Positions 9,043-41,141 of a stretch of 64,000 bases of DNA are shown here, one piece after another. The notes under the pieces are model-generated. The model saw nothing but the letters and a program-made list of their open reading frames with translations, did not search any database and was not told the origin of the DNA. The position numbers and the translations under genes are program-made. The first letter of the stretch is position 1, and each line of letters opens with the position of its first letter. The stretch is from Lingula anatina (Eukaryota; Animalia; Brachiopoda), in assembly GCA_051362555.1 (NCBI GenBank), contig CM120641.1:14570001-14634000 (forward strand), in the 5' to 3' direction.

Positions 9043-11831
9043 TGAGAATTACAGATATTTAAAGAATCTGAAAGCATATCTACAATATAGTATTTTGAAT
9101 GGATGGGAATGGGAATCATCAGAGATAGCCAAATTGTCACATGGTTTAAAGGGCAGGAAAAGTGCCATAAAACAGATTTTCCTGGGGTAAACGACAATTT
9201 TCCCATACTTTCCAATGGTTAATGAATCCGTTCCAATATTCAAAGTTGTTCAATATTGTTTTCTTAAGTGTGTATTTTTTAATAATCTCTTTTATGGTGG
9301 CATTCCCAGTGCAAAGACTCATTTTTTTTGTAAAAAAACTTAGCACCACCATGTCCAGATCCTTCCACATTTATCTAATTCTGTACCAGGGTATGCCACT
9401 CACTGCTGGCAGCCTCATTTTCTTGCTATCTCAGAAGATTTCCCTTGGTCAATGAATCTTATAACTGATTCAATGATCCTTGACCAACTAGTCCAGGCTA
9501 GCATATTAAGTTAAAAGAAATCAATTCAAGATTAAATACATATCTTTATAGACAGCAATGAATCTTATTCATATGAGTAGTACACATACCCTGTAAATTT
9601 TTTACGAAATAGTGTGGCCATCTCTTTAATTAATAGTTTTGATGGTCAGAGAAGAGTTCAGATATGTCACTTTGATCTTAAGTGAACATTTCTTTCAAAA
9701 ACACAAGTGACAAACTAAAGCATATTCAAAAATATTTTAGTAGGACAGTTAATATCACACGTGAAAAAATAATTTAGTTCTGTTTGTGTAAGTTGCAGGT
9801 AGCATTAACGATATCTTTGATTTTCACACTTTCACAGCAAATGGGTGATGTTGCTTCATGTAAAAGAATTTTTTAAAGTACTTATTAAAATAGAATTAAA
9901 TGTGAACTTTTGAGGTTACTCATAATGACAGATATGGAGGCAAGTTACACAGATGTGTACATCAATTACAAATCAGCCATATATAACATAACCTGAAATC
10001 AATTGACAATTAACCTCTCACCCTTCTTGCAAAATACTGATTACTGTTCAGAATTCTATGTAGAAGCAAGCATTACTTCTTTCACAGGTTCCGTTAGCAT
10101 GATGTATGATCACTTACAATACACAAGAAACCTTAGCAATCCAGGGGTTATCTACTATCAGTTTTCATTTATTTGCTTGTTTTTTACAGTAAAATTTTTA
10201 AGTACCTTGAATCATGTCAGACAAAATGTTTCAAGTAGACAAAAATATAATCTTCAAGTGGAAGAGGGAGATTGATACGAGACACTTGTTATGTTCTGTA
10301 TTTACCTGCTAGGTGATAAATATAATGTGATGAAAAAGAAAACACTAAAAGAGAGAAAGAGTATTACAAAATTGTATAAGCTGATAGAACCACTGTATGT
10401 GCACGAGCACAAACACAATAGGAATTACATAGGGTGGTATTTGCTTTCCTCTTTTTGTCAAAAGCTATCAATTCTGAGTGACTAGTAGCCATTCTGACCC
10501 CATTATTTAATACGAAGAACTGTACATGCAAATTTTTGATTTTTAAATTTTTCATTTGAATGTTTGGAAGAGCATGAATATGTCTGTAAAGAATAATCCT
10601 TAGAATACTGTATCTGCCCCTGCTTTCAGCTACAAAGAAACTAAGGAGCAACATTGCAAGAAAAACAAGATCTGAGATTGAAAATGTGTTTTCAATTGGG
10701 GGAACAGACTCCCCAACTATTTTTGATTCTTTGAGGGGTTAAGTTTTAGTGCTGGGTTGAAGACTGCAGCAATTCCAGGTAATCACTTCCCACCACTTCC
10801 TTGAAATTGCCAAGTGGCTGGTTCCCGATGCACCTGTCTTATGGTCTACTGTAAGACACTGCAGTACCTATAGTTTCAAGTCAGCTTTTCTTAAATGCAT
10901 TACAAAGTATGTTTCTTCAAACTTATTTTACACCAACTAATGATAAACCTGAACTGCAAGTTACAATGATTTCTGGGTACTATTTTTGACATAATAAATG
11001 ATCACTTAATTTAGTAAGTATAGTGTGCTTAACTGTACTCCTTGCATATGTCAGTAAATCATAATAGCTATATTTTGCTCACACAAAGTGCCAATTCTCG
11101 CACAGATTTGCTTGCACTCATATTTCTATAATATGTTACTTTTACTTAATGAATGTTCTTTGAGCAGTATTGCACATGAGGCTGTGTAATTATTGCTTGT
11201 TTTAATATGGTTCAAGTACTAGATTTCCTTGTACTGAACGGCTCTTCAAACTTGCCATGTATGTTAATTAACAGGATAGGATAGCATATCAATAGATGGA
11301 CTCCACAAGCTGATAATTTTAATACATAAAAGTGTGTGAAAAACATAATAAAACTGTTATACTTTTGTTAATGTGAAATGTTCCACTCACATAGTCTGAG
11401 AATCAGTTTAAAAATAAAATAGCATTAGTCATCCATGAGAAAAAAAAATTTAAGTGAATCTGAAGATTACCTGAATTACCTGAGCATGTTTCTACTTGTG
11501 GTAGGTGCAATATACTTGTTTCAGAATAAATCAACCATTTTAATTAAATTTTTTTTTTAGAAAAATATCCAGTAATCACCACAGAGTGAAAGAAAGAGAA
11601 TGTTAAGCTAAGAAAAAAATTAACTGAAATATAGGCATGCTCTTGGAAATCTCTGACATACTGCCTTTAGCTTAATGGCAGGTGCATTGTCTTCCGTTGA
11701 TCGCACGGGAGGTTTTGCAATTTTAGAGCTTTCCCTTTAAGTGGTGATACTGGGGTAGTCAAAAGCTATTGCTAATATCCATAATTTTCACTAATGTGAA
11801 TCAAAATATTAAGAAGAGATGATGTTATTAT

Positions 11832-11994: not shown

Positions 11995-13269
11995 TTGGGG
12001 CCTTGGATTGCGGTCTTAATGGTTTTGTTTCTTGCTGTGAAATTTATTAGCCATTCAAGGACTAGATTGAGTATTTCAAGTTTTGTTTAAAATCATTCTA
12101 ATTAACCCTTGAATTCAATTTTATGTAACATAAGCAAACAGGATGATGCATCCCTGAACCCAGTCAATGTTTCCAAGTGATCTCCGCTAAAATTATTTAA
12201 ATGATATCAGGAGTACTAAGTATTCTTGAATTTTTTCAGTGTGTACCTTCTAATAAAAAAGTAATTACTTTCCCCATTGCTGTGCTGATGTTTGTCAAAG
12301 TTGAAAATCTCACTTTGATGTAGAACTCAAAGCACACCTTTTGGGCATCATCTGAAGTGACATACAATTCTTAGAGATTTAAGCTTTTTGTTATCAAGCA
12401 CTCCCAAGATGATTCTGAGAATATGTCAATATAATACAGCTAAGAATGTGAATTCATCTCTAATAAAGTACGATTTGAAGGATGAGCAAGCAATCAATAC
12501 ACCGAGCTGCAAACCCCAGTTTCCTTGATTTGATAATAGCATTTACTTGGTATCTAAATAGGTTAGACAAAACTCAATATCTTCAAGTTGGACATTGCAC
12601 CTCTTCACAGCTTTATAAATTATAGAGCAAACCAAATAAGGTCAGGCTCTTCTGGCAGATCTGTTCAATCACAACTTTTAAAGTAAAGGTTCATTTTTCA
12701 GTATTACTATTTGCATCCACTAAAGCAGGTTCAATCTTTCCCTTACATCTACTGTTTCCAATTTTACTGTACACAATTCCTTGTGTGGCAGAGGGAATGC
12801 ACATTTATGCAGCCAATTGCTGTAATAGTCTAGTGAGGTTTTTGAAAAAAGGCTCTGCATAAGAGGCAAGGGGCATTTTGGGGTAAAAGTTGGGAACCAG
12901 GCTTATTAGCATAATTTTGGGATGCTGAATCCGATTAACCCGGTTCCCAAGCGAAATTTTGCGTTTTTAACGGTCTAATTTGCAAAAAAACAAAATGGCC
13001 GACAGATTACCTATTTTCTGCAATATCTCTGGAACTAGACAGGCAAATATGACAAATGAAGTGTCTTTACCTATATTTTCAGGGTCGAGGAACATTATTA
13101 AGATGTTTCTGTTAAAATTACATTTACGTAATTTTCCTAAATATGCAAATTAGGATCGCCATTACTGAAAAACCGTTTTACTTCTGTATCTCTGTAACTA
13201 GGTAAGCAAACATGACAAATGAAGTGTCTACACCTATGTTCTCAGGGTCAGGGAATGTGACAAATCAGA

Positions 13270-13800
13270 TGTCTTGTCTGATGGGTAGCACTGACTTTGT
13301 GAATCGTGTCCGAGTAGCACCTTTTATTGTTTCTTCCCTGTATCCGTCAAACACTAGTCAATCTGCTGATAGTTAGAACCTGCCTTCAGAACTGCTCTTA
13401 CGTATGTGTCAGCCAAACTACCAAAGGCCACTGCATTGTCAGGCTTTCCCAGTGAAATTGCCAGTGCTTGCCAATCAATTATAAGGCAAGGTGAGCAGAG
13501 GCGGATCCAGGATTATTTGAAGGGGGAAGTCCGCGGATGCAAAGCCTCCCCTCCACTTAGCAACAGGTTAGGGGCCTGTTGAAGGGCTACGAACAATTTT
13601 GATATTTAAGAGGGCGAACGGTGCCATTTGGTATGGTTTACAACTATGATTCAGCTAGTCAAAATTATAATTTCAAGACAAGAAATTCGAAGGGGGGGGG
13701 GGGGGGGTCAGGGCCCCCTTGAGCCCCCCTCTAAATCCGCCACTTGGTTAGGAGTCATTCAGTTTAATTTCATCAGGGCAGAATACGTCTTCTGTTAAAC
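13270..13800 (-). pseudogene. Fragment of an XPG/PIN-like nuclease domain from an Academ-type transposase, interrupted by a MITE
   Basis: After removing 13496-13745 and one TSD copy, the minus strand reads LTEDVFCPDEIKLNDSSPCLIIDWQALAISLGKPDNAVAFGSLADTYVRAVLKAGSNYQQID, then after a frameshift VFDGYREETIKGATRTR. This fits the IIDG...VVFDRY..SIK..R.RR PIN-fold pattern. Confidence 0.7.
13496..13745. mobile_element. MITE of the CAG(G/T)GGCGGAT...ATCCGCCACTG type with a 6-bp TSD
   Basis: Ends cagaggcggatccag and ctaaatccgccactt. Flanks ggtgag/ggttag match 5/6. Excising it restores the reading frame of the host transposase relic. Confidence 0.75.
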
Positions 13801-14063
13801 TTTCTGTTACAGATTTGGTCTCAACGAAATCGTTTAGAAGCTTGAGATACTGCTCAGACTTGCTATTAATACAGAAATGTTTTCTGTATCGTCAATCATT
13901 TAATTGGATTCAATAGAATATCAGAAGATTAAAGTTAAAATTCAAGAAATTTTGTAAATTAAAATGAAACGATACCAACGGGTAACCAGTAATAATAGGC
14001 TAATGGAAAAATCGCTGAAATGGATGAGGTGAGATGTCATCGTGTACTTAAAGTATACACATA

Positions 14064-15674
14064 CATATTGACATTTAATATGGAATATTTTAGTTCAAAA
14101 GCAAAGTGTTGATAATAAATTAACTTTTTTAGAAAAATTGATCACATACGACAATTGTGATCAGGTATAAGTGTAGCCAGGTGTGTTGGTTATTGTTCAT
14201 TAGGCTGCTTTCTCTGAAGCGCGGTTATATTACGTAATATGTGGCAGTTTCTCTGAGCAGTCCTCTTTGGCGGGTTACAGAATGAGTATAAAAGGGCAGC
14301 AGTGCTGCAAAATAAGTCTCTATATTTCGGCAATGTCCTGTCAAATAGTTTGATATTTTGCAGACTGTTAGCTGATCTTACGGTATGTGAACTAACGGCA
14401 GCAACTTGCCACACTATTGTTGCATTATGCCAGAATGGACTGAAGCAAACTGCTATTGCCAGACAACTGCATGTGTCCCAGGGAGCAGTTTCTAACGTCT
14501 TACAAAAATACGCCCAGACTGGTACATTAACACAGAGACCACGGCCAGGACGTCCTAAAGTCACCACCAGAAGGGTAGACCGCATGCTTCTGCGGTTATG
14601 GCGCAACAACCGGACAAAGACAACTCTTGCTGTAAAAAATGAGTGGCAAATTACCATTCAAAAGCATGTTTCTAGAACTCTAGTGAATGCAAGGCTACTG
14701 TTAGTTGGCTACCTCCATTAACAGAGCAACACTAACGTCTGCGCTGCGTCTGGGGTGGGCCAGACACCATTTGTGGTTCCAGGCAGAGTACTGGGTTCAT
14801 GTAGATTTTTACAGATGAGGCAGGGTTTGAGTTCCACCACCGAGATGGCTGAATCAGTCAGTAGGCTTCCAGACGAGTTAATGCACGAGGATTGTGTCAC
14901 ACTAGAGTGACTTGTGGCCGTGGCAGTATCTGTGTATGGGCCGGTTTCCACACTGGAGCCAAAACACTATTGGTGGCAATTGATGGAAACCTCAACCAGA
15001 TAAAATAAAGGGACATTTTAGAGAATACTTGCTTGCAATTTGCAAGAAGGTGCTTCCAGGACAACTTCATCCTGCAAGATGACAATGCCCGACCACGCCG
15101 TGCCCATGCAATGGCTGCTTTTCTGCAAAACCAAGAGGTAAATTCCCTGACATGAATTCTATAGAAAACCAGTGGGCATAAATCGCTAGCAGAATCAAGA
15201 GCCAACCCGTCCAGCTTACAAATCGGCACAAGCTTAGGCAAGCTCTGACTAATGCGTGTAACACAATACTGGATCAAACTCTCAGAAACCTCTCTGCATG
15301 GATCCCTGGCCGAGTGAGGGCTCTGGTTGCAGCTAGAAGAGGCTGCATGCGTTCTTATCAGTTCCCATTTTTCACATTTGTCTTGATGATTCTGTTGTGT
15401 AAGAGAAAATCCTTACCAACTGATATTCTTGATAATATCGAGTTCATAAGCATTTAATACCTTGTTGTTATCAGCTATAAAATTATCTATGCGCTGTTTA
15501 TAACGCTGATTTGAATACGTATTTAGATTAAATTTTTGATGATGTTTTCACATGGATTGATTTATTAAAGCCATATCGAACATGATAACAAGTGTTTTTT
15601 TCATCCATTACTAATATATGGGAAAAAACCAAAGAAAATATGTTTGAAAAAAATCTATTTAAATGTCAAGTCCG
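14064..15674 (+). mobile_element. Degenerate Tc1-like transposon nested in the Academ-type element
   Basis: Transposase relic inside. A residual inverted match ttgacatttaa/ttaaatgtcaa lies next to TA dinucleotides at 14062-63 and 15675-76. Boundaries are approximate. Confidence 0.7.
14385..15360 (+). pseudogene. Tc1-family transposase pseudogene
   Basis: Paired-like HTH (IARQLHVSQGAVSNVL) and GRPK motif in ORF 14302-14721. FTDE at ~14808, CVWAG at ~14930, LQDDNARP at ~15072, PDMNSIENQW at ~15146. Multiple stops and frameshifts; the D-to-E spacing is only 83 nt, indicating a deletion. Confidence 0.9.
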
Positions 15675-17032
15675 TACATTGCATCACATGAATTACTTGA
15701 TTCAGCAAATCCCTCCATTGCATACATAAAGAAATCTTTTTTAAATTTAGGTAAAAGGGGCAGTTGTGTGATCCAATATGTTTACATCCCAATGGCAGTG
15801 TTTAATTGCAAAATTCAATTCAGATTCGAATAATTGCTACAGTGTGACAGTGTACATGTAGCACTCATTGCTGATTTGATTATAGTGAAAATGTCTGAAC
15901 CACTTTCCCTAACGCTGAAAACATAGGTGTGGGCACTTCATATGTCATGTCTGCTTGCCTAGTTAACATATGAGCAGTTCTGAAGACAGGTTCTAACTAT
16001 CAGCAGATTGACTTGTGTTTGACGGATACAGGGAAGAAACAATAAAAGGTGCTACTCGGACACGATTCACAAAGTCAGTGCTACCCATAAAACAAGATTT
16101 ATCACATTCCCTGACCCTGAGAACATAGGTGCAGACACTTCATTTGTCATGTTTGCTTACCTAGTTACAGAGATACAGAAGTAAAACGGTTTTTCAGTAA
16201 TGGCGATCCTAATTTGCATATTTAGGAAAATTACGTAAATCTAATTTTAACAGAAACATCTTAATAATGTTCCTCGACCCTGAAAATATAGGTAAAGACA
16301 CTTCATTTGTCATATTTGCCTGTCTAGTTCCAGAGATATTGCAGAAAATAGGAAATCTGGCGGCCATTTTGGTTTTTTGCAAATTAGACCGTTAAAAACG
16401 CAAAATTTCGCTTGGGAACCGGGTTAATCGGATTCAGCATCCCAAAATTATGCTAATAAGCCTGGTTCCCAACTTTTACCCCAAAATGCCCCTACTATTC
16501 ATCTTTTGTGGAAATCCCACTAGACTATAAGGTGTGTGCTGTGTGTAGATTTCAGTGGAAGTTCTGATCAGTACCAAGAGCAAACCAACAATCAAGATAG
16601 CAACACTTTCACACTTTTTATTTGGCAATCAGAGAGAAAAAGTCTTTCACGCATTTTGGTACTGCTATCAACATGTATATATGGATTAGATTGTATGAAA
16701 TAAATAGTAAAATTTGGATTCATAAATAGGTTAAGATCTTTTTAGGGCATCTGTTAAAACACTGTTTTCCTAAAACTACCATGTACAACTACCATGTGCA
16801 CTGCCCTGCAATGGCTAAGATTTTGGCACCAAAATGTCTTCATACAATATAAATAGGATGTCTGTTAAGTAGTTCCATCACAGTTTTAAGTTCACTATCA
16901 CAATCAATGCTACTGTAAATGTTTTCAAAAGTAAAACGGCCTTGGTCAAGAAAAGTCCAGCGTTTTAATTCAAGTAGTCAAGAAATAGTTCATATCTGTT
17001 TTTAGATGCATAATTTTTCCAAAAACTGCCAT

Positions 17033-19223
17033 TTACTTCTTTTTTTCTTTTGGGATCAAATCATCAATTGGTTGCTTCTTCTCCAGCTTCTTTTCCATTT
17101 CTATCAGGAGCTTGACGCCATCGATGACAAACTGGCACAGCTCCACCTCAGAGTATCCCAAACGGTCGGCATTGGAGATATCAAAGGTGCCTCCAACAGC
17201 AGCAGTGTCTACACCACCTAAAGTTTTTGATAATTCAAATAATTGGTGAATGAATAACTATTAACTATCTGAAGAAAACCACCAAATATATATTGCTACA
17301 CTGGAATTCACATTTAAACAGGTACAAACTCTCAACGTGAACAATTTATTGTCAAGCTGAAATATCAAGAAGCACCTTTAATTGATAACTGACCATAAGA
17401 AAATGAAAGCAAAAAAGCTAAACAGTTAATTTGTTAATGCAAACTGGGCGAGGTTTTAAGGTTAATAATTGGCTATGGAAATACAATAAAAGGACCATTT
17501 CCACAACAGGAGGCCTGGAGTATGTGAACCGCAACGCAGTGAACGAAAAACAAATTTACCTGTGCCACGTTTCTGAAGACGTAGTTTCTCCAAAATGTCA
17601 TCAAAGCGAGAGTCCTTGGACAGGTTAGGGACCTTGACATGGACACCACCACGCAGACCAGTTCCCAAGTTGCTGGGGCAGGTCAGGATGTAGCCCAAAT
17701 GTTCGTTCCAGCTGTACTCCTTGCCTTTGCTCTTCATGAGAGACTCAACCTTGTGGTTTGAAAATCATTAACATCTTAGACATAACTTTTGATCCTTATA
17801 TGATATATTCTATGAATTAGTTACAATAGTTACAATATATACAATTAATTTAAAAAGAGAGATCAAATCAGTTTTAACATTTTGGAAGTTGCAATTGGTT
17901 ACATATTAAGGCAAAGGCTAAAGTGTGTATTTGAGAGTTTAAGAAAGTGGATTCTCTCCAATAATGACTATTTATGTTTTCCCCAATTGTGTTAAGTTAC
18001 CTTGTTCAGGCCATCACAGAATCTCTTGAAGACTTTCTTCATGTTACCTCCCTTCTCCATAGAGATGACACGGATGTGGTCCTCCTCATTCACCCAGACC
18101 AAGAAGTCTTTGTTTTCATTATGCCTGAAATACATGTACATATTTTACCCTAAGTTTTGCTTCAGTTTGCATGTATTTAACCTTTAAAAAGAATGGTTAG
18201 CAAAGCATCTTAAATGTCAACCAAACTGTGGTTTTGTGCATCTTGTAATAAAGAAGAAGATTTTCATTTATGATATTCATAGCACAAAAACAAGACCATG
18301 CCATCTGAATTTCACTTTTAATGAGACAAAGTAAAAACTCACCAGATACCACGGGCATCAGGCCAGTCACGTGCCATACCAGCACAGGTAAGAAGAGGAG
18401 ACACTGGTTTGTCAAACAGGAAATGGTCTTCAATCAGCTTATCCTGTTCCTCTTCAGTCATGCCAGACAGTGGGTAGTATTTGCCCTTGAATTCTCCATC
18501 CAGGCCATTGAGAGCATCGACAGTAATTCGCTCCACAGCACGCCTCTCAGCACGAGTGCAGTTTGGTGGTAAGCTGTAGCCACGAATGCTACGACCTGTG
18601 CGCACACGTGAGCTGAGAACGTAGTTTGGGTCCAAGTCGTCTCCGCCCTGAAGGTGGTCTGGGTTGAGATCAGTCTTGTGCTTGGCATCCTTAGCATAGC
18701 CACCATGACGTTTGTCAATAATGGGGTCAAAGAGGTCAGCAAATGTTTCATAGCTTTCCTCGTCTCCTGCAGTGGCACCCACAGTCATGATGAAAGGATG
18801 GCCTAAAATTGAATTGTGCACATAAATGTTTTTACTTAATAATCAAATTCCTTTTTCTTTAATTATGTATAAAAACCAAAATTAAATCTTTACTATGTAA
18901 CATTTGGACTAATAGTGAACTTAAGGTATCCTTTATCCAAAACAACATTTAAAAAAGCAGCTAATGTCAAATTTTAAACTACTTAATCAAAACATTTTGT
19001 TTAACATGAGATTAAGTCTCTCTCTCTCATGTACAGTACCTGGATTGTCAACACCAGTCTGGATACATTGGTCCAGAGTGACTCCAAACTTGGTGACCTT
19101 GTCTCTATTGGCCGCATAGATCTCTTTGGTCAGGCATTTAGCCATCCAGTTATTATGCTTGCTGAGTTCAGGATAATCCTGCTCAGGATCAAAATTCTTC
19201 TGGTTCAGGTTGCAGATAGGCAT
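17033..19223 (-). CDS. CK: Creatine kinase, single-domain cytoplasmic type (380 aa)
   Basis: Coding exons 19223-19040, 18802-18343, 18124-18001, 17749-17560 and 17217-17033 total 1143 nt with consistent phases. Catalytic NEEDH and CPSNLGT motifs are present. Creatine-specific residues: [14 protein letters not shown] loop, R in IDKRHGG, V in GTGGVDT. No mitochondrial presequence. Confidence 0.96.
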
Positions 19224-19423
19224 GTTGGTGGGATTTGTTTGGATGTCACTGCTATAAAATATGGCGAGAAAGGTATTTCTTGAAATCTCAAAAATAAGTA
19301 TAATTTTAGGTTGGATTTATAAAATATAATAAAGAATGATATAGATCAGGAGGAATAATTTTAATTTTTCATATTGAATTTTGTCAACTCAATCTGAATG
19401 TAAAACTACACCTTAAGGCTTTA

Positions 19424-22050: not shown

Positions 22051-22643
22051 ACAAATATCCGACTGAGCAAGATACAAATTATGAAAATGCCATGCAGCAG
22101 ACTAATTGTAAATATCAACAAACAACAAAACATATAGTCTAAAAGGCCATCGATTAGTTACACAAAACGCAAAATATTGTCGACTGTTGACATGGCGTCT
22201 CTAACAACGAACCTTTCTTTGTGCAAGTTCACCTAATTTCTAAATAAGACACCTATGAAACTTAAGCGCAAACGCAAAAACGTTTCTGGATGTATTCCAA
22301 ATATTATCTTTTTCAATAATTTGCTATGCAAAACTGGAGAAACTAAAAGATCCTACCTGCTAGTTCGGAAGACCGCTGACAACTCTTCGTGCTGGAGAAA
22401 CTCACGTGAGTCATGTGATTCGCAACACACATTTGATTGGAGGAGAAAAACAATATATCCAAAAAAGGGAATAAGCCAAATGAAAGTACTCTATTTTTTG
22501 CGACAGGAAAGGTGAAATACGACATACGGTAAAATCGCATGAGAGCCTGCGCACTAGAAGCAAATATGGCTGCGCCCATATGAGCGGTGCTTTCAAAGAT
22601 TGTATTACACTTAGGCGTAACCCAAGCGCTAAGAACACAAAAG
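22050..22643. promoter_or_regulatory. Putative bidirectional promoter between CK and TRMT61A
   Basis: CpG-rich ~600-bp gap between divergent genes. Palindrome ACTCACGTGAGT at 22400-22411; YY1-like ACATGGCG at ~22190 and AATATGGCTGC at ~22564. Confidence 0.6.
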
Positions 22644-27737
<5,094 letters not shown>

Positions 27738-29066
27738 ACAGAAGGTAAGAAGAGTAAAGCAAATATGAAATTATCTGAGATCAACAGATTGTCTATTGCA
27801 TTCACATGTAAGGTAAATTTTACTGCCAAATTTCAGCTCTAACTTTGAATGGTATTCATTTAGAAAGGTATTGAGTGGTTTTAAGGAAAACAAGATACCA
27901 CATACATTAAAATATTGCATATATGATAGACATTGAGTAAAGATATATATTTATAGAAATATATGTTAATTATTTGGAAATTTATCTGATTCCAATGTGC
28001 TAGCTTAAACCTCACTGAATAAATGATTGCACATTTGATTTGTTTAGTTATAAAGTCAAGATAATCATTTTAAGAAGCTCTATCATAGGGAAAATTGAAA
28101 TGCTAATTTTTCACAGATATTTTTAAGTAACCCTTTTTTAGCAAAACTCTGGAAGTTTGATTCCTTATTAGATATGGATTGGATTTATTTTAGCCAAGTT
28201 GGAAATTACACATCACTAAATGAAGGGTTTCAATATAAAAAGTGTGTTAGGTGAGAAATTTCTGATTGTGTTAGTCATCACTGGGAATTGTTCTGCAACT
28301 GTTGCCATTGATTTTTCCCATTAACTTTGGCATTTGATTTTTACTTAAACCATTTCAGAATTCTTAAAAGGCAGTTACTTTTGGACCTGATAATTTAGTT
28401 TGAACCAAATAAATAACTGACACTGGTTTCACTCAAGAACAAACTTTGTGTTTGCTAACTAGATGAACTATTTCAGCCAAATAAAAATGACAAACATTAT
28501 AGAAAAGATGGCAAAGTAGGTTTCTCACCACCTTTTGTGAAATGATCAGATGTGCTGTCAGCCTTTGATGCATGGCATTTTGGACATTTATCAATCCACA
28601 AGTCATTCACATAATCTAGCTCCTTACATGGAAGATCAAAATATCATGTATTATATATGGAGAAAACATGTTTTGTCTATTTAGAGATGATTTACTTTTT
28701 AACCACAAAAAAGTTTTCATTTTCTTTAGTCAAAGTAAATTATCTTTGCATTTGGCAAAACGTTTGTATACTTATGTGACCAGCATTTATGAAAATGAAA
28801 GGACCAAAGATGTCATTAAAATTTTGCCATCCATAACAAAGTTTATACTGAGGAGTGTTCCATTATACAGTATGACCTGAATTTTCCTGACACACAAACC
28901 CCCAATGTTTCTTGAATGACCAACCATCAGTTTTTCACTGTTACTGTTATAACTATTAATTAGTTGGTGTAACATTGGGTTATGACTTGTGAATTTGTTT
29001 GTTCCTTATACTTACATGAAAGAGAGAGATTGAAAAACAAAAATAATACCATGGGTTGTGGTGATA

Positions 29067-29072
29067 TTTATT
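29067..29072 (-). terminator. Candidate polyadenylation signal of the NPAS4-like gene (implies a ~2.7-kb 3'UTR)
   Basis: AATAAA on the minus strand followed by T-rich downstream sequence. Inferred only. Confidence 0.5.
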
Positions 29073-29554
29073 ACAATAATTACTGATGAGAACATTATTT
29101 ACATACACCTTGACCATAAAAAAACAATCATTTGAATTTAATCTTACTAATTGCTTTGAGATGCTACAGGCACATATTAAGCCATTACATTTGAATTTAG
29201 AAGGTCAGGGAATTATACAACAGAAAAAATACATATTAGACTTGAAGTACACATTTACTTTGTATGCTATATGTAGTTACCACTTACATAATGCATCCTT
29301 TGTATAAACTAAATATGTCAAGATATCAAATTAAATATATAGTTACCATTTTACAAATTGTATATTGATCCATCATAATGTTAATATTGTTAATTGCATA
29401 CTTTTACATTTATAAGTAATATTAAAATACCACTCTGTACAAGTGAACATGGTTAAATCATATAAAAATTAGAATAAAGTTAAGCACAATAGACAATTTT
29501 TGGTTAAATATGTTCTTATAATATTACTGACTGGACAGCATCAACTAGACATGG

Positions 29555-31199
29555 ATCTTGGCCAGCAAGATAATTGAAAAAAAAATGACAGTCATTGTTA
29601 CCCTTTTCAAAAGCTTGGGTAGTTGCTCACAGTTGTTCAGATATTTGCTATGTAAGCATCTGTTTTTACTTTGAAACTTTCAGCTGATTTAAATATGTCA
29701 GATAAACCTATATTACAATGCTTTACCTATCATTTTCACTATATGTTTATTTCCTAATTCACACATTTTTATGCCTGACCAGCAGGTTCTATGGTTATTT
29801 AATGACTTCATATCATCTGCAGCTCCTCAATGGCATTCATAGTCCTCTATTTTTCTATGTTAAAAACAATTTAACTGCTCTATCTAAAAAAAGCACATTG
29901 CCAAGCAAAGTGTTCAAAAACAATAATTTCCATCAAATGCATGCATCAATTTAAGTTCTTCAATTAGATATCACCCTTCAGTATCCCAGGACTGACTGTC
30001 AAAAACTGAACTTCAACCAGTGAAATTGTGGTTCTTATATTCTACCTTTCCTGACCCAATGAACCAAAAAGCTTCAGAAAAGAGGCTCACATGTGCATGG
30101 TCTTCATCTAATTGAAAAATCACTACATGTTTAAAATCAATATCACCATATTATACATCTACACACCTAAATGTAAATTCTTTAAAAAATGATTTTCATA
30201 ATTATCTTATTCAAATTTGTGGGGAAAAACAAATTTTGTTTATATTATACAAACTTTTCTGTAAATTCCTAGTTTTCAATGAGGGAGGGCTATAGATTGC
30301 TGAAAATGGCTTAAACACTGCTGAAGTATGGCTTCTGTCTCAAAATGATAACATAACCAAAAGATTAATGGGTATATCCAGGTGGCAATCACTACCAGCA
30401 GCTAATGAACACCTGGATAGATGCCCCATATTACCATGGCAACAAACATATTTCTCAATAATTTACATCAGTCCAGTAAGCTGTCCACTAATCCAGTTCT
30501 TAGGTAGGTGATTTGAATTATGTTATATCTAACCACTCTGCCTGCAGAGTGAATACAGAAAAAGGAAATTTGGTATAAATTTGGGTTCGGTTTGTATCGG
30601 TTCATATTTTCAACTCTGCCAGCAGAATTTGACATTACTCTTTGCAACCATTCTAACTACATTTGCAAAATAGGCTGCTGTGCTGTGGTGGCTCCAGAGG
30701 TTTTAAAGTAGTGTTTTCTTTTTTAAAATTTTATTTCTTAATACTGAAGAGATTTTTTTCACATTACTGTTGTATCCATTGTGGTCAAATTATTGAATAT
30801 TTTCACACTTTAAACATGGCCCTTGGATCCACCACCTTGATAATAGTTATACAACTACAAACAGCTCTGCCTGCAGAGTTTTGTATTCTTACTCTACCAA
30901 AGAAAATACTTCAAATGAAAAACTATGAAAAACTGAAAATAATATAACTATACCCTAAAGTATATTTCTAGCTCAGTTAATAGCACACATATAATTGCAT
31001 ATATACTAAATGCAAATATTGTCCCTCGCATAATCTCTTCTTGTAACTGCTCTGCCTGCAGAGCATCCTAATTCTGCAACTTACTTGGCCCACCTGTATT
31101 GAATCAGCACTGTATATACTGAGAATTGCCATATACTTTTGTGGTCTGTGTAACGAATATTCCTGTATTTAAAATATGCATAGTAAAGCCTGCTTTACT
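29555..31199 (-). promoter_or_regulatory. Cluster of ~10 CNGG(N) stem-loops (Smaug recognition element-like) in the NPAS4-like 3'UTR
   Basis: Hairpins at 29555-571, 29774-786, 29978-995, 30009-027, 30371-425, 30534-551, 30612-629, 30856-885, 31048-065 and 31182-199. All have CUGG, CAGG, CUGGC or CUGGU loops on the minus strand. Confidence 0.75.
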
Positions 31200-31729
31200 G
31201 TTGATCTTCATGGAATTAACAACACATCAGTATATAGTCAGCACTGCACGAAACAAGTTCGAAATGCAAGGTGATTCAATAGAGATGGGTGAAGGCAGTA
31301 TCAAGTAACAGTCTTGATCTATGCCAAAGCTTTGGTCTGGTGCAAATAGCACATGGAACATTTGTCCATTTCAGTTCTGCTCTTTCATCCTGGAACTTGG
31401 CAGCAATGCGACCAAAACTTGAACCATCTATCACTGGCAATATGCCTTACAGACATTTTGGCGAAACATAAGATACAACTCCCGATCTACAGGAAGGGAC
31501 ATCTTACTGCATTGTTGGTCCACCTATGGGAAACAAATGAGATAACCTTAAAATTAATACTTATAGGATACTGTGAGACATTTCCTGTATTATTTAAAAA
31601 TATATATTGCATTGAGAAGCTTGGAACTTGTCTATTAATCTGAAAGAATATTGATCACTGTTTAAACTAATGTCTGTTAAGTTTATAAAATTTTAATGAT
31701 TTGTTAAACTTAAAAAGGAGATCATAATG

Positions 31730-34700
31730 TTATTTTTTCAACAATGCAATAAGATACTCACCATAACTTGGTGGAGGGTTTACATCACCGAGCTGTTGAC
31801 TCAGTTCTTGGTTTGAAACAATAACCCCATAACTTGGGGGAGTATTCTGCTGATGGAGTGGACTCCAGGAGGTAGTCGCTGGAAAACAATCTCCAATCAG
31901 GCTGTCACCAAGGACGTTATTAGCATCCATCAGGGACATGGCATCAGTAGTGGTCGTGGGGACAGGGAATGACTCAATAAGAAATGAAATGTCTCCAGTG
32001 AACCCCACTGTTTCAAGAAGATTTTCATAACTGGTTTCTGTTGTGCCAGCACAACTTGGATCTGGAGACATGTGCCCTTGGATTGGACTGCTTCCCATTC
32101 CAGTTGAAGAAGGTCTTGGTGATGCATGGCTTTCAAAGCTGTGAGTGGAATCCCGACTATCATCGTCAAAGTGGTTGAAATAATTTTCAATTTCCATCAC
32201 ATTGATGACAGGTAAGAACTGGTTGGTCTTGTCTTCATCTGTCATTTTGAGGCCATGCGTTGCTGCAGTTTTGGTAGCTTTCTTAGCAACTGATGTGGAA
32301 CAGTTCTGACTAGGTAAGGAGGTCAGCACAGAAGGAGTGCATGATGTTAGTGATTGATTCCTCAGAACAGCTTGGCTTGATGATGTCTTTGAGTTCAAAC
32401 ACTCATCCACCACATCTGCATCAATCACTGGCAAAAGGTGCTTCTCATCATCCTCAAACTTTTCCAAATCAGCGACTGGCTCCTGGCTGATATTCTTTGT
32501 GATGGTGGCAATGACTTCTTCAAGTTGAAATTTTGTTGTCTCTTTGTGGTCCCCTAGAAGAAAATCCCCATGGATGTGCAGAGGTGATGAATCGGGTGTA
32601 AGATAGGAGTCGGGCACTGTTGCAGTCTCAGTGGCAACTGCTTCTTTTGTGGTCTTCAGGGGATGCTGATCTTTAGGAGACTCTGGAGTGGGTGGTTGAA
32701 AGTCTGTAAGAGGCTTAGTGGCATTTGACTTTGCCATGCACATCATTGAAAGTTTAGCTTTTAAGGCTTGCTGTGTTGTTGTTGAGCTTGGATAGCTGTT
32801 CTGTGTTAGGACTTGCATAGAGCCATAGACAAAAGATGTACTTCCTGAGTTCCCTCCTTCTGGTGAACTAAAGAATGGTGCTGACAAAAATGATGCCTCT
32901 GTAGGGAAGCTACCGAAGCCACTTCCTATCCCTCCCATACCACCCTGACTGTCGTCACTGTGTGAGTGACCCACTCTTAACATTTTGGAAGGCTGACAGC
33001 TTGGATGTGGATCTTCAGATTTGCGTTTGATACCACTGGGCTGCTGCAAGGTTTCAGTCACACAAGACTGCAATGGGTCTCCCAGAGTAGACTTCATGGG
33101 GTCAGCCAATGTACAGTGCATGGTATCTGCCATTATACTACTGCCAGGTTGCTCAGGCCAAGAGAACTGACTAGCGGCACTGGGGCTGAAGACTGACTGT
33201 AGTCCTGGAGAGCTTCCTCGGCTGTACTCAGAGGGGCTTTCACTGAAACTGCCCAGGCTCCCCCTTGGTGGCAGAGCAATGTCAGGATGGGTGTAGCTTC
33301 CACTGGTGCTGTCTCCCAGATAATGCTGAGGGGCTGTCCTAAGAGAGAACTGGCCTCCATAGTTTGTTTGATTGGGGGAAGTGGAGAAACCACTACTGTA
33401 TGGATCCATTGTAGCAACTGGCGTTGTGGTTAAAGCATAGGGAACACCCTCTGGTGGAATGGACTGTGAAAGACAGCGCTGTGGGCTGTAGCTGGTGGGC
33501 TGGGAGTACATGAACTCTGAGTTACGGGCCATCTGAGCTGTGTAGATCTGACTTTGCATCTTGAAATATGGAGCTTCATTTTCACTGAAAAAATATAACA
33601 TAAGTAAATAATAAGATGAATTCTTGCAAAGATGTTGTCCATGAAGTATTGTGAAAATCTTTGCTTTGGCTGAAATATTTAAATTTTCCAGTTTTATGTA
33701 TTTCAAAAATTGGCTTTTTATTATCTTGCAAATTTTTGATGAGAACTTGCTGTTATCTGCCAATTTATTTATTTGTTTTGAGAGCCGTGCTTTGCAAGTA
33801 CAGCTATATTTGAAAGATTTGTACAAAAATGCAATTGTCACCATCCCTTCCCTAAAAGTAATGCTCATACAAAATTGTTAACTGTTGATTGCCCTTGTTA
33901 GTTTTTACCTATGCTCCTAATTAACTTACAGAACTTGGGGATGGTTTTTATCATTTTTGTCTGAATTCTATAACGGTAAAACTGTATTGTTATAATGCTT
34001 GCATGAACTAAATGAATGTTTCCTTCTGAAAGCCACATCCTCTCTTCAATACATGTCACTGTGTGTCTACTTGGCTCAGTATTTGAACAATCACTGGTTA
34101 ATAGACCAAGGTGAATGGGATCCAAGCATCTCCAGGGTCATGATGAATGAAGCTTTGCATGCCTTACTAGAGCAGAATAATACTAAGGAAACTGGTTTCT
34201 GTTACAGCGCCATGACAAGTATATTTGCTCATTTTGTCCTTCATGTCTAGCTATCGACTTCGGCTTTCCTGGGAGGAAAGTACTAATTTGATTGACAAAC
34301 TCGGGGTAAAAAGGCATTATTCTCACCTAGAATTGGAATTCTTAGACATATCCTCAGATAGCCATTTATCACCAAAATCTTATCATCACCAAATAACCCT
34401 ATAACTTTTAGACTTGTAAATCCCACTTATAGAGTTGCACTGATGAGCATTGACAATTTGAAGTGTACATTTTTCAATTTATTAGCCCACATGCAACTAT
34501 GCTTGGCACTTTTGATGATTAATAAACCAGCATTCTACCCACTGGAACATGGGTACTTGTCAATCATTTGACACACACCCAATCAAATAATGATAAGCAT
34601 TTGGTTTTAATCTGGTTAGTCTGGTATGTTGTATTTTTGTATACTAATGTTACTAGGACTTTCAAAGAAGAAGAGTTATTGCCTACTTGATGTTTAATTT

Positions 34701-37369
34701 AAAAATAATTATATTTTCCCCTCTGTTCCCATTATTTTTTAGTGACAATTTCTAAATTAATATGGATTTTAAAAGTTAATTCCAAGGATCCAAAGGATGA
34801 GATTTAACCTAAACATTTGAATGGCACATTTAGATAAGCAATTCATTATAAAAGATATCTCAAAAAGGGCTATTTACCTTATGACTTGGTTAATGCACAT
34901 GATAGCAGCTTCTCCATTATCAGATATATAGGGCTGGCGTATGTGCATCACTGTATTCACCCAGATACAGGTGTTGTCGTTCCTTATCAGTCGTACAGTG
35001 AGCATGCACCCCATTTCATGACTTGAATGAATTACTGAAAAATTGAAACATTGGACATGTCAATCATTTGAACCCCTAGAGGGACATGTTCACTTGTCCA
35101 TAAATGTACCAATCCATTAGTCAACCACTCTTGGGTATGTAGTGTTTAGGTGTGGTGAAAGCTACATGATATTTTTGTCAGTTGGGACACAGAATTGGTC
35201 TTCATGTATCGTGCTACGCTTATATTAGTTATATTTTGTGGCAAATAGGTATGGTGCACTAATGGTTGTTCATAATATGGTATTTGTTCTTACAAGAGAA
35301 CTTGCCCTGGCTAAATGCAGCTAGTCTAAAAAAGGTATAGCTTGTAATGTATCATTATATGTGTTATTATTATTGTTATTATTGTTATTATTATTACACT
35401 GCCATAGCTACTTACATTGCACATGCTTATCTCTTGCCTCTTGTGCATCTTCTGGGTGTAAAAGACTATACCAGGACCTGCCTGTGACATCTTCTGTTGT
35501 GACACCAAGATGATGCTCTCCTCTACAACATATATTACACCCACATGTATTGTAAAGATTACACAGCACTTTTTAAAAAGGAACTATACTATAAAAATTA
35601 TCTCTTCGTACTTGTCTAATGTTTTTTTTCTTCTTTAAAAAAGTAAGCACAAGGAAGTACTTTAATTACCTTTGTGAAATCTCCATGTACTTCATGTCTA
35701 GGCTGTGAATTGATTTGAATACCATGGTGTTATTTTGTAGAGCCGTCTCCTTGGTCTCTGGCGTGATGAGAGGGCTGCACAGGGCCAGGAATACAGGCTG
35801 GTTTCCATAGTGGTCTCGTATCATAGGCTGAATGAACTGCCCATGAACATGCATAATCTGAAAACAGGGAAAAAAGTTATTCATTTAACATATAATTCAA
35901 AGAATTAATGATACATCAACTTTCCTGATTTTTGAAGTTTTGTAACATTAGTGATGTGAAATTACAATGCACCTTTTATGAAGTGAGTTTAGTATTCATT
36001 ACATTTCACCACTTACATGTAAACATGTTTCTGATACTGGTAGGTTTCTTCCTGGTATATCAAATTCCTTAACAATGAATGCATTCAAATAATGCATGCA
36101 CACCCACAAAGGCAATGAATTTTTCCTAATTGTGCAGGTACACCTAATAAGTAGCACACCCACGCAGATATGTGATCCCTCTCTCAAAAAAACACACAAC
36201 AGCAAACAAACTTGATGAGTGAAAAAAAAACACACCTTTTGATCACCAATACTACTCTGTCTTCTCAAGGTACGGGCTATGTTCATCCGGCAGAAGAAAG
36301 ATCTAACATTTTGGTTCTGACTCTCCCCAAAAGAAGTTTGCAAGAGCTGTGATTGAACTGTTGTATGGTCTCTCTTATCTATGATATCATATATACTGTC
36401 CCCTTGGGTCATCATGTCCACCTGAAAAAGCAAAGTGCCCAGTAAGCTGACATAATGTCATCATACAAGTGCAGTGTATATATTAGATGAAGAAAGCATT
36501 TGCGTGTGATATTACCAGTGCCTGTGTCTAAAATGTAGTTGCATGGTTGGAATTCTATATAAAAAATTAATATGCACACTACATTGCCTTAGATTAAAAT
36601 AGACCAAAACGTCTCTTTAATTTCTGCTTTAAAAAAGGAAAAGAAGATGAAACATATGAATTAATCATGTCAGCACCTCCAGTGTCATCATGGTCTCATC
36701 ATAATTAGCCTATGGCCAAAACCAGTTTTCAACCAAATTAAAGCAAGTCGTAGCTAGTATGTATATATACTAACCATTGAATGTCCTAAGTATTCTGTAA
36801 CATTTTCTGACAAATATAGCATCTTCCCATCCCTGGTTGCCACCAGAAGGAACCCTGGAAGTGTCTGCAATCAAAGAAAAAAAAAATGTGTGATTTGCAT
36901 CTAGGTACCCATTGTTAACCAGCCATGTAAAACGATTTTTATCAGTTCAAGTTCATTGCACCAAAATACAAAATTTAATGCACTGATGAATTTCAAGCTA
37001 CAATCATAAATGACAATGTCTGAAATGCTCAAATATATGAGACCTAAAACCAGTAGGTTAGGTAAATTTGAGATAAAAACCCGAATTAGGGACAATAAGG
37101 ATAAAAGGCAACATGGGAGACCTATAAGCTAAGGAAATCAGGGTCGTATTGCTTCTTTCACAAAGGAGCGTATGTGCTAAAGCAATACATTTACAGTCTG
37201 GCTTTATATATTTCCTCTAATTTTTGTCATACTGAAGTTTTTTGAAAATTAACCTGTTTCAGCTGAACAGTTAAGGTGTGGCATGCACCAAATATTATCT
37301 TTTAGTCAAAAGAACTTCCATTCTGGTATTGAATCTAGCCTTTCATTTTAACACTGACATTGTCTCATG

Positions 37370-37414
<45 letters not shown>

Positions 37415-40400
37415 TCCTCAATGTCATTTTACTCCTGTGTTTATCCAAATGTTAGTAACTGTTAAGGTCATTGCCAGTTAATTGGTTTGGCATTTCACTT
37501 GATCACACACAGAGGAAATTTTAATTAAATTTTGATTTTGTAGATCAAGGTATATGAGTGCATTTTTTTGCCTCTTGGGAGGTCTTTTGTAATATGCTCA
37601 GATACATGTATGTGACAGTCACTTATGAAATAGCAACTCTTGTACCTGCCCCTTTTCTTGTCCAATCACTGTCTAATACATGATACAGAATAATTTATTG
37701 TTAATATTTATCCTATTCAGTACTACACAAGAGATGAACTTCCACTGACATGTAGCATTTCACAATAAAGTACTCACTACAAATGTTAGTATTGTTACCC
37801 ACTACTTCAGATGAAGTGAGGCGCAATAATTTTCACTTTGTAAATATCACTATCAGATTTTCATGACCTCACTGATGCTATGACGTCCACGTGAATTCAA
37901 TGATTGTCAACCTCCGTACGTCATACGTTTTCGTGAAAAGATGTATGAGCGGAACACTACACTGACGTCATAAGGATCAGGTAAAAAATGATAAACTGTT
38001 TTTATATATTTATTGTATATATATCCTACTAAATAGGGGATGTCTGTATAATTTATTCAAACGGAAGACAGTTTTATTCTTCAAGTAAAATGGATATATT
38101 TTAGGCCTACATTTGTTAAACTTGGTGAAATTTAGGATGTATTTTATTTAAATTAAAACTTTTCTTACTGTACAGCAAGACATTAACACATAGAAAACAT
38201 ACCTGTGCAAATTCGAATGGCCCTTCAACACTATATCCTGGATTGCCGAATACTGAAATGGAAATATTTCTCAGAATTAGAGTCAGCAGGAGTGCCTTTC
38301 ATTTCTTGATTTAAATAGTTACACACAACTGTATCCTAGGATGGATGTTGTCCAATAAATGAAATACTTATCATTTGAAAATATTGTCCATTAAAATTAT
38401 GTTCATTGGCACTTATTTTCAGTCATTACAATGCCTCTCACTGAGGAATGTGGCTTAGCCTGGCTGATAGACAGACAAATAATTCCTGATATTCCCTATA
38501 TTTACAACACTGTATTTGCAATACCTACTGCTGCATATAATATTCAGAAAAATTTAAGGCCCCCCCTCCCCCAAAAGAAAATTGCAAAAGGATAAATGAT
38601 GAGTTATACTTACGTCTTGCAAAATAATTGCTCTTTCTAATGAAAATACATGCTAGGGACATTATCTGAAGTTGAGATAGGCGTTGTCTTGCTGACTCGG
38701 GCAGGGGAAGCAGGTCACGCACAACCAAAATCTCATTATTAATTTGATCCCTTCGGACCTTGGAAGCTCCTTTGGTTGACCTGGAAAATAAAAAATAATG
38801 AGATTTGTTAACTTTATGTTATCACAATGCATGAAATGATTCATCAAATTTGAATGGGGTTATTCTTATTTTCAGAAAGGGATTTTATATCCATCATCCT
38901 CATCAGTTTAAAACTTTAAGTTACAGAGTTTATCTTTTTTTTTCTAATAAGTAGTAGCATAACTATACTATCTGATAAAAACACACATTTCACTCCCCTC
39001 AGGTTTCAACACCTGAGTCTGTTAATCCAAGCTTTTTCTGGTTTCTAACATGAATGCACACAGATTTTACTCCATATTGCATTATCAGCTACTGCTACCT
39101 CCTGTTGGAACTACTGATCCAACAACTAGTACTGCATGCTTGAATTCCAAGTATAAGTAATAGACACCTACATCCGCTTCAAGTTCCTTACTATTCCTGT
39201 TTTATATCCTGTGTGTCCATGAATCAGGATGATTTCAAGAATTAGTTGCCTTATTTGGGTGGCATACTTCCTTTTTAATGTAAAGACTTGTGGCATCTAA
39301 TGGGAGTATGTGTTTGTGTGTGTACCAGATTGATAATAAGGGAGATGTATGGAGAATGTACATGTTATGAATAATGTCAAAAGTATATATTAAAACATTT
39401 TGAAAATGTAATAAATTTAAATTTATTCCCTCTCCATTTCTCGTCCTTGCCTTGATTTATATTATGCCAGATTAACCAAGTCTTAGTATGATATTATTTC
39501 AATCTTTGTAATTATTATTTTGTGTTATTTGATATATAATAGACAGACTGTGTTCTTTTAAGATGTACCTTTAATAACTTATTCATTAAAAAAAATGCTT
39601 TGAAGTGTCGACAGATCACTCTTAAATAATAGCACAAGCTATATATATATACTGAGAACATCACTCCGTCATACTCAGTATTCATAAGTTCCACTATAAA
39701 GGAGGTGCTGTCTCTTCTACTATAATAATGTGGAAGATCGATAGTATTTAGTGTCATAGTCCAAAATATAAAATGAAAAGTGGCTATTGCACCTAACAAT
39801 GGAAGCATTTATCCCAAATATTACCCGAAAAACCTTTGAGAGAAATTTTGTAATCAAAGTTTTAGATAGAAAATATTCATTGTAAGCATTAGTAAATATG
39901 CACTATATGAAGCTTTAGAGTGAACATAGTAAACAATATTTTGTGTAGGCGTTTGTACATGTACTCAGTCTCTGCTTCAGTGGTGTATTTGTCTACAAAT
40001 CTTCTTTTATGACATTAAGACATCAATTTTCAAGTTAGGTCAGCATCCTCTTCCGACAAGTCCCACTTAAATATGCCCCTTCTTTTCTATTGCACAATGC
40101 CTTCCCCTGCTTGTGACGCCAGTGCTATGAATAACAATGCCCAAATCCGTAGGCTAAACATTGACAAAAGTATATGTAGGGCCTCAATGGCTTAAAAAAG
40201 TAGAGCACAAGAATAAATGCTTGGGTCTAAAAATAGATATGAAAGATAGCTGAATTGATTGTTCCAATTGTCAGACAGGTAGAATATCAAGTGGGTTAAT
40301 AAAAATAAAAATAATTAAGATTTAAAAATAAATTCCTTTCTAATTCTTACGCTGTACTTTGAAAAAACTTCTAAAAGGATAAGATTTTATACCGACAAAA

Positions 40401-40854
40401 AGAAGAAAATGATTTAAACTGAATTGCTCTGTTTACACAACAGGTAAAGTGATTTGTGCTAAGTGACAACTTAGTTTTCATACATCGTTCAAATTCACCG
40501 CTTAGGGAAATTATTTACTAGGATAATTTAGGCAGTGAAAATCAATATTACAAATTAGTTCAACAATGTTTCATTATTGAAACCATATTTGACCCCTGAC
40601 TCAAAATATCAGAGTTCACTTAAAATGTCTAAGTCCTTATTCACACACTTAAATCCAATTTATGATTAGTCATCCAATTAATAGGCAGAAATAACTCTAG
40701 CCTCAGAAAAACTGGTAAACTTAGGCAATTAACACATTTTCTTCTATATTTACATACTCTTAGTAATACATGGTAGTTTTAGACTGCTAATTTTTATCTA
40801 AAAGTGCAAAACAACTTTCATTTAAAACAAAAATGAAATTTACCTAAACATCAT
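31730..40854 (-). CDS. NPAS4: NPAS4/dysfusion-type bHLH-PAS transcription factor (936 aa from the MMFR first exon)
   Basis: Exons 40854-40844, 38780-38614, 38252-38203, 36864-36775, 36421-36236, 35857-35670, 35522-35416, 35034-34878 and 33584-31730 total 2811 nt, all GT-AG and in phase. b[18 protein letters not shown]...[17 protein letters not shown]; [34 protein letters not shown]; [14 protein letters not shown]; long S/P/T-rich C-terminus. The first exon is less certain than the rest. Confidence 0.93.
37373..37413. repeat. Poly-T tract (~41 nt)
   Basis: Directly visible, intronic. Confidence 0.95.
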
Positions 40855-40999: not shown

Positions 41000-41141
41000 A
41001 AATGTTGTGGGAGGCAAGGTTGGTGTTATTATATATACCACGCACCTATTATTATACTGTCTCCTATTGATTCTACACATACGCAAGCATACTGGTACTG
41101 TATAAGCGTTTACTTACGGATCACATGGTGTGATGACGTCA
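41000..41141 (-). promoter_or_regulatory. Putative proximal NPAS4 promoter: TATA box plus full CRE
   Basis: TGACGTCA at 41134-41141, TATATAA (minus) at 41035-41029, Inr-like CATTT ~32 nt downstream (~41003), then ATG ATG TTT AG|gtaaat at 40854-40844. Confidence 0.65.

Follow-up and report, generated by a model that had tools for sequence, protein, structure and literature searches.

Smaug and its relatives read short RNA hairpins with a CNGG loop. The consensus for fly Smaug is CNGG(N)0-3 in the loop, with no set sequence in the stem, and the best predictors of regulation by Smaug are a CUGG loop, a G immediately 5' of the loop, and a loop of five nucleotides (PMC4053848). Smaug/SAMD4 recruits CCR4-NOT and translational repressors, and the family has been kept from yeast to humans (PMC9893680). 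Described targets include Drosophila nanos, whose 3'UTR has two Smaug recognition elements (SREs), Hsp83, with eight in the open reading frame, and the targets of Vts1p and SAMD4 (PMC4053848, PMC9893680). In mammals, Smaug has been proposed to control an mRNA involved in neuronal plasticity, that of the kinase CaMKII-alpha, with one putative site in its 3'UTR, and Smaug1 forms foci (S-foci) that dissolve upon NMDA stimulation; according to the same report, the physiological targets of Smaug1 remain to be identified (PMC3246892). A second SAM-type system uses similar RNA. ZCCHC14 binds stem-loops whose pentaloops match the Smaug motif, and the TENT4 that it recruits stabilises the RNA (PMC9282228). 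The elements described for it, stem-loop alpha of the HBV PRE and stem-loop Vb of HAV, are viral pentaloops that occur singly and either stabilise RNA or help replication (PMC9282228, PMC2275152).

The NPAS4 mRNA of a brachiopod carries an array of hairpins that compares closely with these elements. As in nanos, Hsp83 and the targets of Vts1p and SAMD4, the loops are CNGG(N)0-3 on free stems, there are several copies per mRNA, and G is preferred 5' of the loop. Unlike in nanos and Hsp83, about ten copies are spread over one 3'UTR of an mRNA for a bHLH-PAS factor, the array persists across three phyla despite turnover of single sites, and the brachiopod loops are mostly tetraloops, half of them CAGG. 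In contrast to CaMKII-alpha, there are many sites, read from sequence, in the mRNA of a transcription factor. The loop family, including G-CAGG-N-C, is shared with the ZCCHC14-TENT4 elements, but the NPAS4 array is cellular and multi-copy, and its effect may be of either sign. SREs are a known kind of element, and NPAS4 mRNA is a candidate new target of a known system.

The NPAS4 gene and the extent of its 3'UTR

We analysed a stretch of 64,000 nt from Lingula anatina (Brachiopoda; GCA_051362555.1, contig CM120641.1, forward-strand positions 14,570,001-14,634,000), referred to here as the window. As originally predicted, it contains an NPAS4-type gene, on the minus strand (31504..40854). The gene has ten coding exons (40854-40844, 38780-38614, 38252-38203, 36864-36775, 36421-36236, 35857-35670, 35522-35416, 35034-34878, 33584-31762 and 31523-31504), with the stop codon at 31506-31504. 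All introns in this exon model are GT-AG, and its translation of 932 aa has one mismatch to a database protein (P0001) named Lingula anatina NPAS4. Pfam domains are bHLH_NPAS4 (88 bits), PAS_11 and PAS_3, and the closest homologues are NPAS4 of annelids and molluscs and arthropod dysfusion. By its bHLH and PAS domains and its homologues, the predicted protein belongs to the NPAS4/dysfusion/CKY-1 group of bHLH-PAS factors, and we refer to the gene as the NPAS4 orthologue.

Mammalian NPAS4 is an activity-induced neuronal transcription factor. Around the brachiopod gene there are full CRE palindromes at 41134, about 280 nt upstream of the first coding exon, and at 37963, in intron 3, and intron 1 has one MEF2-like and one CArG-like site (40227 and 39249). 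The sites are compatible with an immediate-early gene and are a weak indication of one; the whole window has three CREs.

The NPAS4 3'UTR is about 2.45 kb long (2454 nt; 29050..31503, minus strand), with an approximate 3' end. We mapped four RNA-seq runs to 27300-33800 (38-387 reads each). In the pooled stranded runs (X12, X15 and X16), coverage of the NPAS4 strand was unbroken from the coding exon to the bin at 29036-29252, a continuity made up of adjoining coverage at low depth, with no single read spanning the UTR. There was no NPAS4-strand coverage below this bin, where a transcript of the opposite strand took over, and RNA depth in another run (X18) rose stepwise at the same bin. The last NPAS4 intron was a splice joint in 13 RNA reads; this and the stranded coverage place the hairpins on the sense strand of the mature mRNA. 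The AAUAAA poly(A) signal that is likely used is at 29067..29072 (minus strand), with further signals at 30735 and 29751, the use of which would remove seven and one of the ten hairpins, respectively. Because stranded coverage is continuous to ~29050 and an AAUAAA lies at 29072, all ten hairpins of the original prediction are within the UTR, as it had claimed, and the transcript does not end near 31200.

The opposite-strand transcript comes from a TRMT61A-type tRNA methyltransferase gene (22584-29035, plus strand; Pfam GCD14) that is convergent with NPAS4. It extends to ~29035, and its 3' end abuts that of NPAS4. In the TRMT61A UTR, a structural polymorphism is suggested by loose ends of reads at 28661-28706. 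Frames in a TRMT61A intron (24293-25304, minus strand) resemble, by eye, a decayed reverse-transcriptase fragment; the piece tested had no Pfam match. The window also contains a phosphagen kinase gene of the creatine/arginine type (~17460-19316, minus strand; Pfam ATP-gua_Ptrans) and an element with terminal inverted repeats (~13060-16300) and a paired-box/HTH transposase-like frame (14257-14721), which we take to be a likely Tc1/mariner-type transposon.

CNGG hairpins in the brachiopod 3'UTR

The NPAS4 3'UTR is enriched for CNGG hairpins on the sense strand. With a working threshold of 4 bp for the stem, G-U pairs allowed, we found 10 hairpins of at least 4 bp, versus 1.05±0.97 (maximum of 5) in 500 dinucleotide shuffles. 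There were 7 of at least 5 bp, versus 0.39±0.62 (maximum of 3), and enrichment was similar with 2000 shuffles. The antisense strand of the UTR had no CNGG hairpins, and the predicted excess over both shuffled and antisense sequence was thus borne out. An ensemble SRE score, based on folding and modelled on PMC4053848, was 4.02 for the UTR versus 0.06±0.17 in 60 shuffles. Seven altered loop motifs were not consistently enriched in the UTR over shuffles.

We compared the UTR with 216 background tiles of 2.5 kb from the window and the loci fetched for the comparison below, a background of mostly introns, exons and arthropod DNA rather than long lophotrochozoan 3'UTRs, and 5 hairpins with stems of 5 bp or longer were the most in any tile. 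With stems of 4 bp or longer, five tiles of 49-56% GC reached 7-11 hairpins, and so the count at that threshold needs composition-matched shuffles. Within the window, no other 2-kb bin had more than 2 hairpins of at least 5 bp, and the ensemble SRE score of the neighbouring TRMT61A UTR was 0.02.

All ten of the predicted hairpin sequences are present on the minus strand, and we number them H1-H10 in the original order, 5' to 3' in the mRNA. Every loop has CNGG, and nine of the ten stems reach 4 bp; H8 has 3 bp. H1 (31182..31199) and H2 (31048..31065) have 7-bp stems and G-CAGG-C tetraloops, with predicted loop probabilities of 0.95 and 0.99. H3 (30856..30885; G-CAGG-C) has a 5-bp core at 30878-30865, and in the predicted folding its loop is masked by a rival 9-bp hairpin (probability of 0.03). 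H4 (30612..30629) has a 7-bp stem with G-CUGG-C (0.62) and H5 (30533..30552) an 8-bp stem with G-CAGG-C (0.64). H6 (30371..30425) is a long stem (z of -3.4) whose top, at 30402-30391, is a weak stem of 4 bp closed by a CUGG loop. H7 (30009..30027) has a 7-bp AU-rich stem, a CUGGU loop and a competing fold (0.10-0.12). H8 (29978..29995), with CUGG on its 3 bp and a bulge, is doubtful (0.008). H9 (29774..29786) has a 4-bp stem with G-CUGGU-C and forms in isolation only (<0.05). H10 (29555..29571) has a 6-bp stem and a canonical pentaloop, G-CUGGC-C (0.32). A weak hit at 31169-31156 (minus strand), absent from the original prediction, is the tenth hairpin in the count at the 4-bp threshold. There is also an SRE-type hairpin of 6 bp with G-CUGG-C in the large coding exon (32040..32055, minus strand; probability of 0.85).

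Predicted folding makes about six of the ten sites credible. Loop probability was at least 0.6 for four (H1, H2, H4 and H5) and 0.1-0.3 for two (H7 and H10), and it was below 0.05 for the other four (H3, H6, H8 and H9) because of competing folds.

Five of the hairpin cores, those of H1-H5, are conserved in a divergent lineage. DNA contigs (X10) and RNA (X18) come from a lineage about 5% diverged from the window. H1, H2 and H4 were unchanged in both, H3 was unchanged in X10, and H5 had no X10 substitution. Over 30525-31215 (691 nt), X10 has 31 substitutions, none of them in the cores of H1-H5, which make up 88 nt and would be expected to receive 3.9 (p=0.013 by a hypergeometric test and 0.025 by circular shift). 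X10 indels, as judged by depth, group at ~30550-30596 and 30700-30800; the fit of X18 reads extends to 30563, past H5. A further run, X11, from another organism, contributed a single piece of 39 nt and no comparison. At H6, loop probability was 0.002 with the window letters and 0.44 with those of X18, in which two changes convert G-U pairs of the SRE register to A-U; the competing register tolerates both changes. At H10, there was no X18 variant among 40 of the 191 differences. We conclude that the hairpin array is a real, selected element of the UTR.

The approximately 5% fixed differences occur under one species label, suggesting that X10 and X18 represent a distinct lineage or cryptic species. 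A stretch of 126 nt that includes H2 (31005-31130) is without any listed X10 or X18 difference; within it, 31079-31106 can pair with 31272-31299 as the arms of an inverted repeat of 28 nt.

Part of the array could have arisen at the DNA level, with H2-H5 being a local duplication, a small dispersed repeat or DNA palindromes in which the CNGG loops are incidental. H2-H5 do share a 20-nt unit with 75-90% identity, contrary to the claim that the stems mostly differ in sequence. The test for mismatches that are G-U on the mRNA strand and A-C on the other gives no proof of RNA-level structure either: the predicted asymmetry was not significant among internal mismatches over the four UTRs described below (10 vs 7, p=0.31), nor in a second design (10 vs 9). 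Against this origin, five of the six copies of the core CUG-CNGG-CAG in the 64 kb are in the UTR, no tandem array was found across the hairpins, and the flanks have changed around conserved cores.

Arrays in other NPAS4 orthologues and their putative reader

We searched metagenome contigs with an NPAS4 alignment and obtained 48 loci, and the scan for hairpins with stems of 5 bp or longer covered all of them. Shuffle tests were done for the eight with a definable end of the coding sequence and at least 550 nt downstream (L022, L015, L018, L004, L002, L036, L011 and L017). Left out were near-duplicates (L008 and L037), UTRs of <200 nt (L003, L005 and L006), loci with the next gene close by (L009 and L045), one with the contig ending before the UTR (L016), and those with no definable stop. 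In a quick IQ-TREE tree without a non-NPAS4 outgroup, L022 was placed among heterodont bivalves with support of 99, and L015 and L018 formed a pair beside annelids, a less sure placement. All three have the layout of the window gene, one large exon followed by a tiny last exon.

CNGG hairpins were enriched in each of these three UTRs, the limits of which are predicted. L022 had 11 hairpins of at least 4 bp versus 1.5 in shuffles, L015 had 7 versus 2.0, and L018 had 12 versus 3.6; in each case, none of 500 shuffles reached the count, and the antisense strands had 1, 1 and 5. Ensemble SRE scores versus antisense were 5.56 vs 0.30 (L022), 3.06 vs 0.01 (L015) and 3.91 vs 0.02 (L018). The six sense hairpins of L022 with stems of at least 5 bp and loops of 4-5 nt in 14.7 kb were all in the UTR, and two of the stems were 10 and 13 bp. 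With the window included, four of the four lophotrochozoan NPAS4 UTRs examined were enriched. These are about three independent lineages, since L015 and L018 are related. Among the arthropod regions (L004, L002, L036, L011 and L017), none of the five was enriched over shuffles at 4 bp or more; L017 was enriched at 5 bp or more (p=0.008), in a region of undefined UTR limits.

The arrays persist as a feature even as individual sites turn over. The window UTR had no detectable similarity to those of L022, L015 and L018 outside a motif near the stop codon (see below), and because it aligns with them at that motif alone, the arrays are not shared sequence. Between the related L015 and L018, a CNGG site was found in three of four blastn blocks. 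A further homologous site had a compensatory change between C-G and U-A. The unrelated UTRs of other phyla have different stems with the same loop and the same U-G preference before the loop. These orthologous arrays largely refute an origin of the brachiopod hairpins in duplication, repeats or palindromes, which we regard as very improbable.

The array might be read by a SAM domain and still be routine, reflecting clearance of maternal mRNA or general Smaug targeting of a kind common in long 3'UTRs. In the fly, 339 genes have mRNAs bound by Smaug, with eight SREs in Hsp83 alone (PMC4053848). However, the low score of the TRMT61A UTR, the scarcity of hairpins in other bins of the window, and the enrichment in all four lophotrochozoan UTRs argue against such generality, and we think it quite unlikely. 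This explanation concerns the purpose of the array and is compatible with the Smaug mechanism that we favour.

The pooled hairpins have the positional preferences of Smaug sites. Among the 40 hairpins of the four UTRs, G was 5' of the loop in 26 (versus 32% in shuffles, p=2e-5), U was at N2 in 24 (versus 36%, p=0.002), and the loop was 5 nt in 21 (versus 24%, p=1e-4), in agreement with all three preferences (G before the loop, CUGG, and a 5-nt loop). In the window alone, G preceded the loop in 8 of 10, CUGG and CAGG were found in 5 each, 3 loops were pentaloops, and 6 were 4 nt; by the fly Smaug data, these mostly tetraloop, half-CAGG loops would be suboptimal (PMC4053848). The pooled preferences point to a SAM-domain reader, as judged from sequence, and they do not decide between Smaug/SAMD4 and ZCCHC14.

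A localisation factor or another protein that reads structure or CUG, such as factors of the MBNL/CELF type, could instead be the true reader. Many of the sites contain CUGC or UGCU words, and H6 sits on a long, stable stem. The enrichment, on the other hand, is specific to C-N-G-G on the 5' side of the loop, with altered loops not consistently enriched, and the positional preferences match those of Smaug, making a reader of this kind extremely unlikely.

If ZCCHC14 or a relative were the main reader, the array would stabilise the mRNA through mixed tails made by TENT4. The loop of the HBV element, G-CAGG(U/C)-C (PMC2275152), resembles the G-CAGG-C loops of H1-H3 and H5, although the ZCCHC14-TENT4 targets described in PMC9282228 are viral. 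Pentaloops are frequent in L022 (9/11) and L015 (5/7) and less so in L018 (4/12), with just 3/10 in the window. The neighbouring YRY-triloop element (see below) fits decay better than stabilisation. So does the expectation that an mRNA of the immediate-early type is short-lived. We consider ZCCHC14 unlikely as the main reader.

We favour Smaug/SAMD4 as the reader because multi-site arrays are documented for Smaug (Hsp83, with eight sites; PMC4053848), because tetraloops fit the Smaug consensus, and because the same UTR holds a likely decay hairpin. The predicted class of element, SRE-type CNGG stem-loops in the NPAS4 3'UTR, is upheld by the confirmed UTR, the conserved cores, the arrays in other phyla and the Smaug-type preferences. 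By analogy with the described systems, the NPAS4 hairpins are probably Smaug recognition elements that confer multivalent repression and deadenylation by Smaug/SAMD4. Several SAM domains of Smaug/SAMD4 would bind the array on one NPAS4 mRNA, and the bound Smaug would recruit CCR4-NOT and translational repressors, giving less translation and a shorter poly(A) tail; the many sites may act additively. Neuronal, activity-gated release of Smaug from the brachiopod mRNA, as with the foci of mammalian neurons, is possible. Among polychaetes, one transcriptome lists a smaug homologue (PMC4462082).

The lists of Smaug-bound and Smaug-repressed mRNAs in supplement files 1-12 and 21 of PMC4053848 do not include fly dysfusion, a negative of little weight given that the data come from early embryos. 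We found no paper linking NPAS4 with Smaug, Roquin or Regnase in a search of literature outside subscription journals, and supplementary lists for SAMD4 or ZCCHC14 may name Npas4. Physiological targets of Smaug/SAMD4 beyond the fly embryo are poorly known, and the NPAS4 array is a strong natural candidate that would also allow a test of Smaug versus ZCCHC14-TENT4 on a cellular mRNA.

A conserved triloop element near the stop codon

Comparing the starts of the UTRs, we found the motif GUAWGGCAUAUUGCC. In the window it is part of a conserved element at 31430..31451 (minus strand) with a core triloop hairpin, GGCA-UAU-UGCC (31446-31436), 57 nt past the stop. Three lophotrochozoan loci, L022, L015 and L018, and one pancrustacean-like locus, L004, have the identical 11-mer 38-133 nt past the stop (motif positions 10883, 5896, 13905 and 2865). 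These were the 4 exact matches in 277,621 nt of loci, all of them after the stop. The mite-like locus L017 has a version with one change and a G-U pair (position 19379), 2.9 kb beyond the last long ORF, and the motif was not found in the remaining arthropod loci. Few 3'UTR sequences are shared in this way by lophotrochozoans and arthropods. We know of no microRNA seed that fits it.

The proximal element resembles the stem-loops of known decay systems. YRY triloops mark targets of Regnase-1 and Roquin (PMC13732794), and the consensus of the Roquin constitutive decay element (CDE) is a YRN triloop on a 6-8 bp stem without G-U (PMC6294493). Like these elements, it is a triloop hairpin in a 3'UTR, and its UAU loop, present in 6/6 copies, agrees with both YRN and YRY. 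The stem is 4 bp in the window, 5 in L004, L015 and L018, and 6 in L022, and the predicted closing-pair probability is 0.28-0.70. We rejected a strict Roquin CDE, since the stem of 4 bp in the window falls short of the required 6-8 bp, and L022 alone has 6 Watson-Crick pairs. Rfam gave no match at gathering score for the window UTR region (five chance-level hits) or for L004, L015 and L022.

Based on these similarities, the proximal hairpin is likely a decay signal of the Regnase/Roquin type. Its sequence is nearly invariant across phyla, more than recognition by shape alone would demand, and because the sequence hardly varies, its fold has no support from covariation. A sequence-specific reader of the motif is equally possible. 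Together, the array and the proximal triloop hairpin would hold NPAS4 expression to a short pulse or a low level. A wider and more tentative reading, which we consider doubtful, is that NPAS4 carries a module predating the split of the protostome phyla, consisting of the invariant triloop and, in lophotrochozoans, a self-renewing array of SAM sites, with the pulse of this activity-type factor timed by signal-dependent release of Smaug or by exchange for ZCCHC14-TENT4. Were that true, NPAS4 would be the first Smaug target of an immediate-early gene programme to show such deep conservation.

Upstream of the proximal motif, at or just past the stop, there is a hairpin beginning with GUAAG in the four lophotrochozoan UTRs (window ~31505-31465, minus strand; L022 ~10850-10867; L015 ~5852-5870; L018 ~13863-13880), and its loops differ among them.
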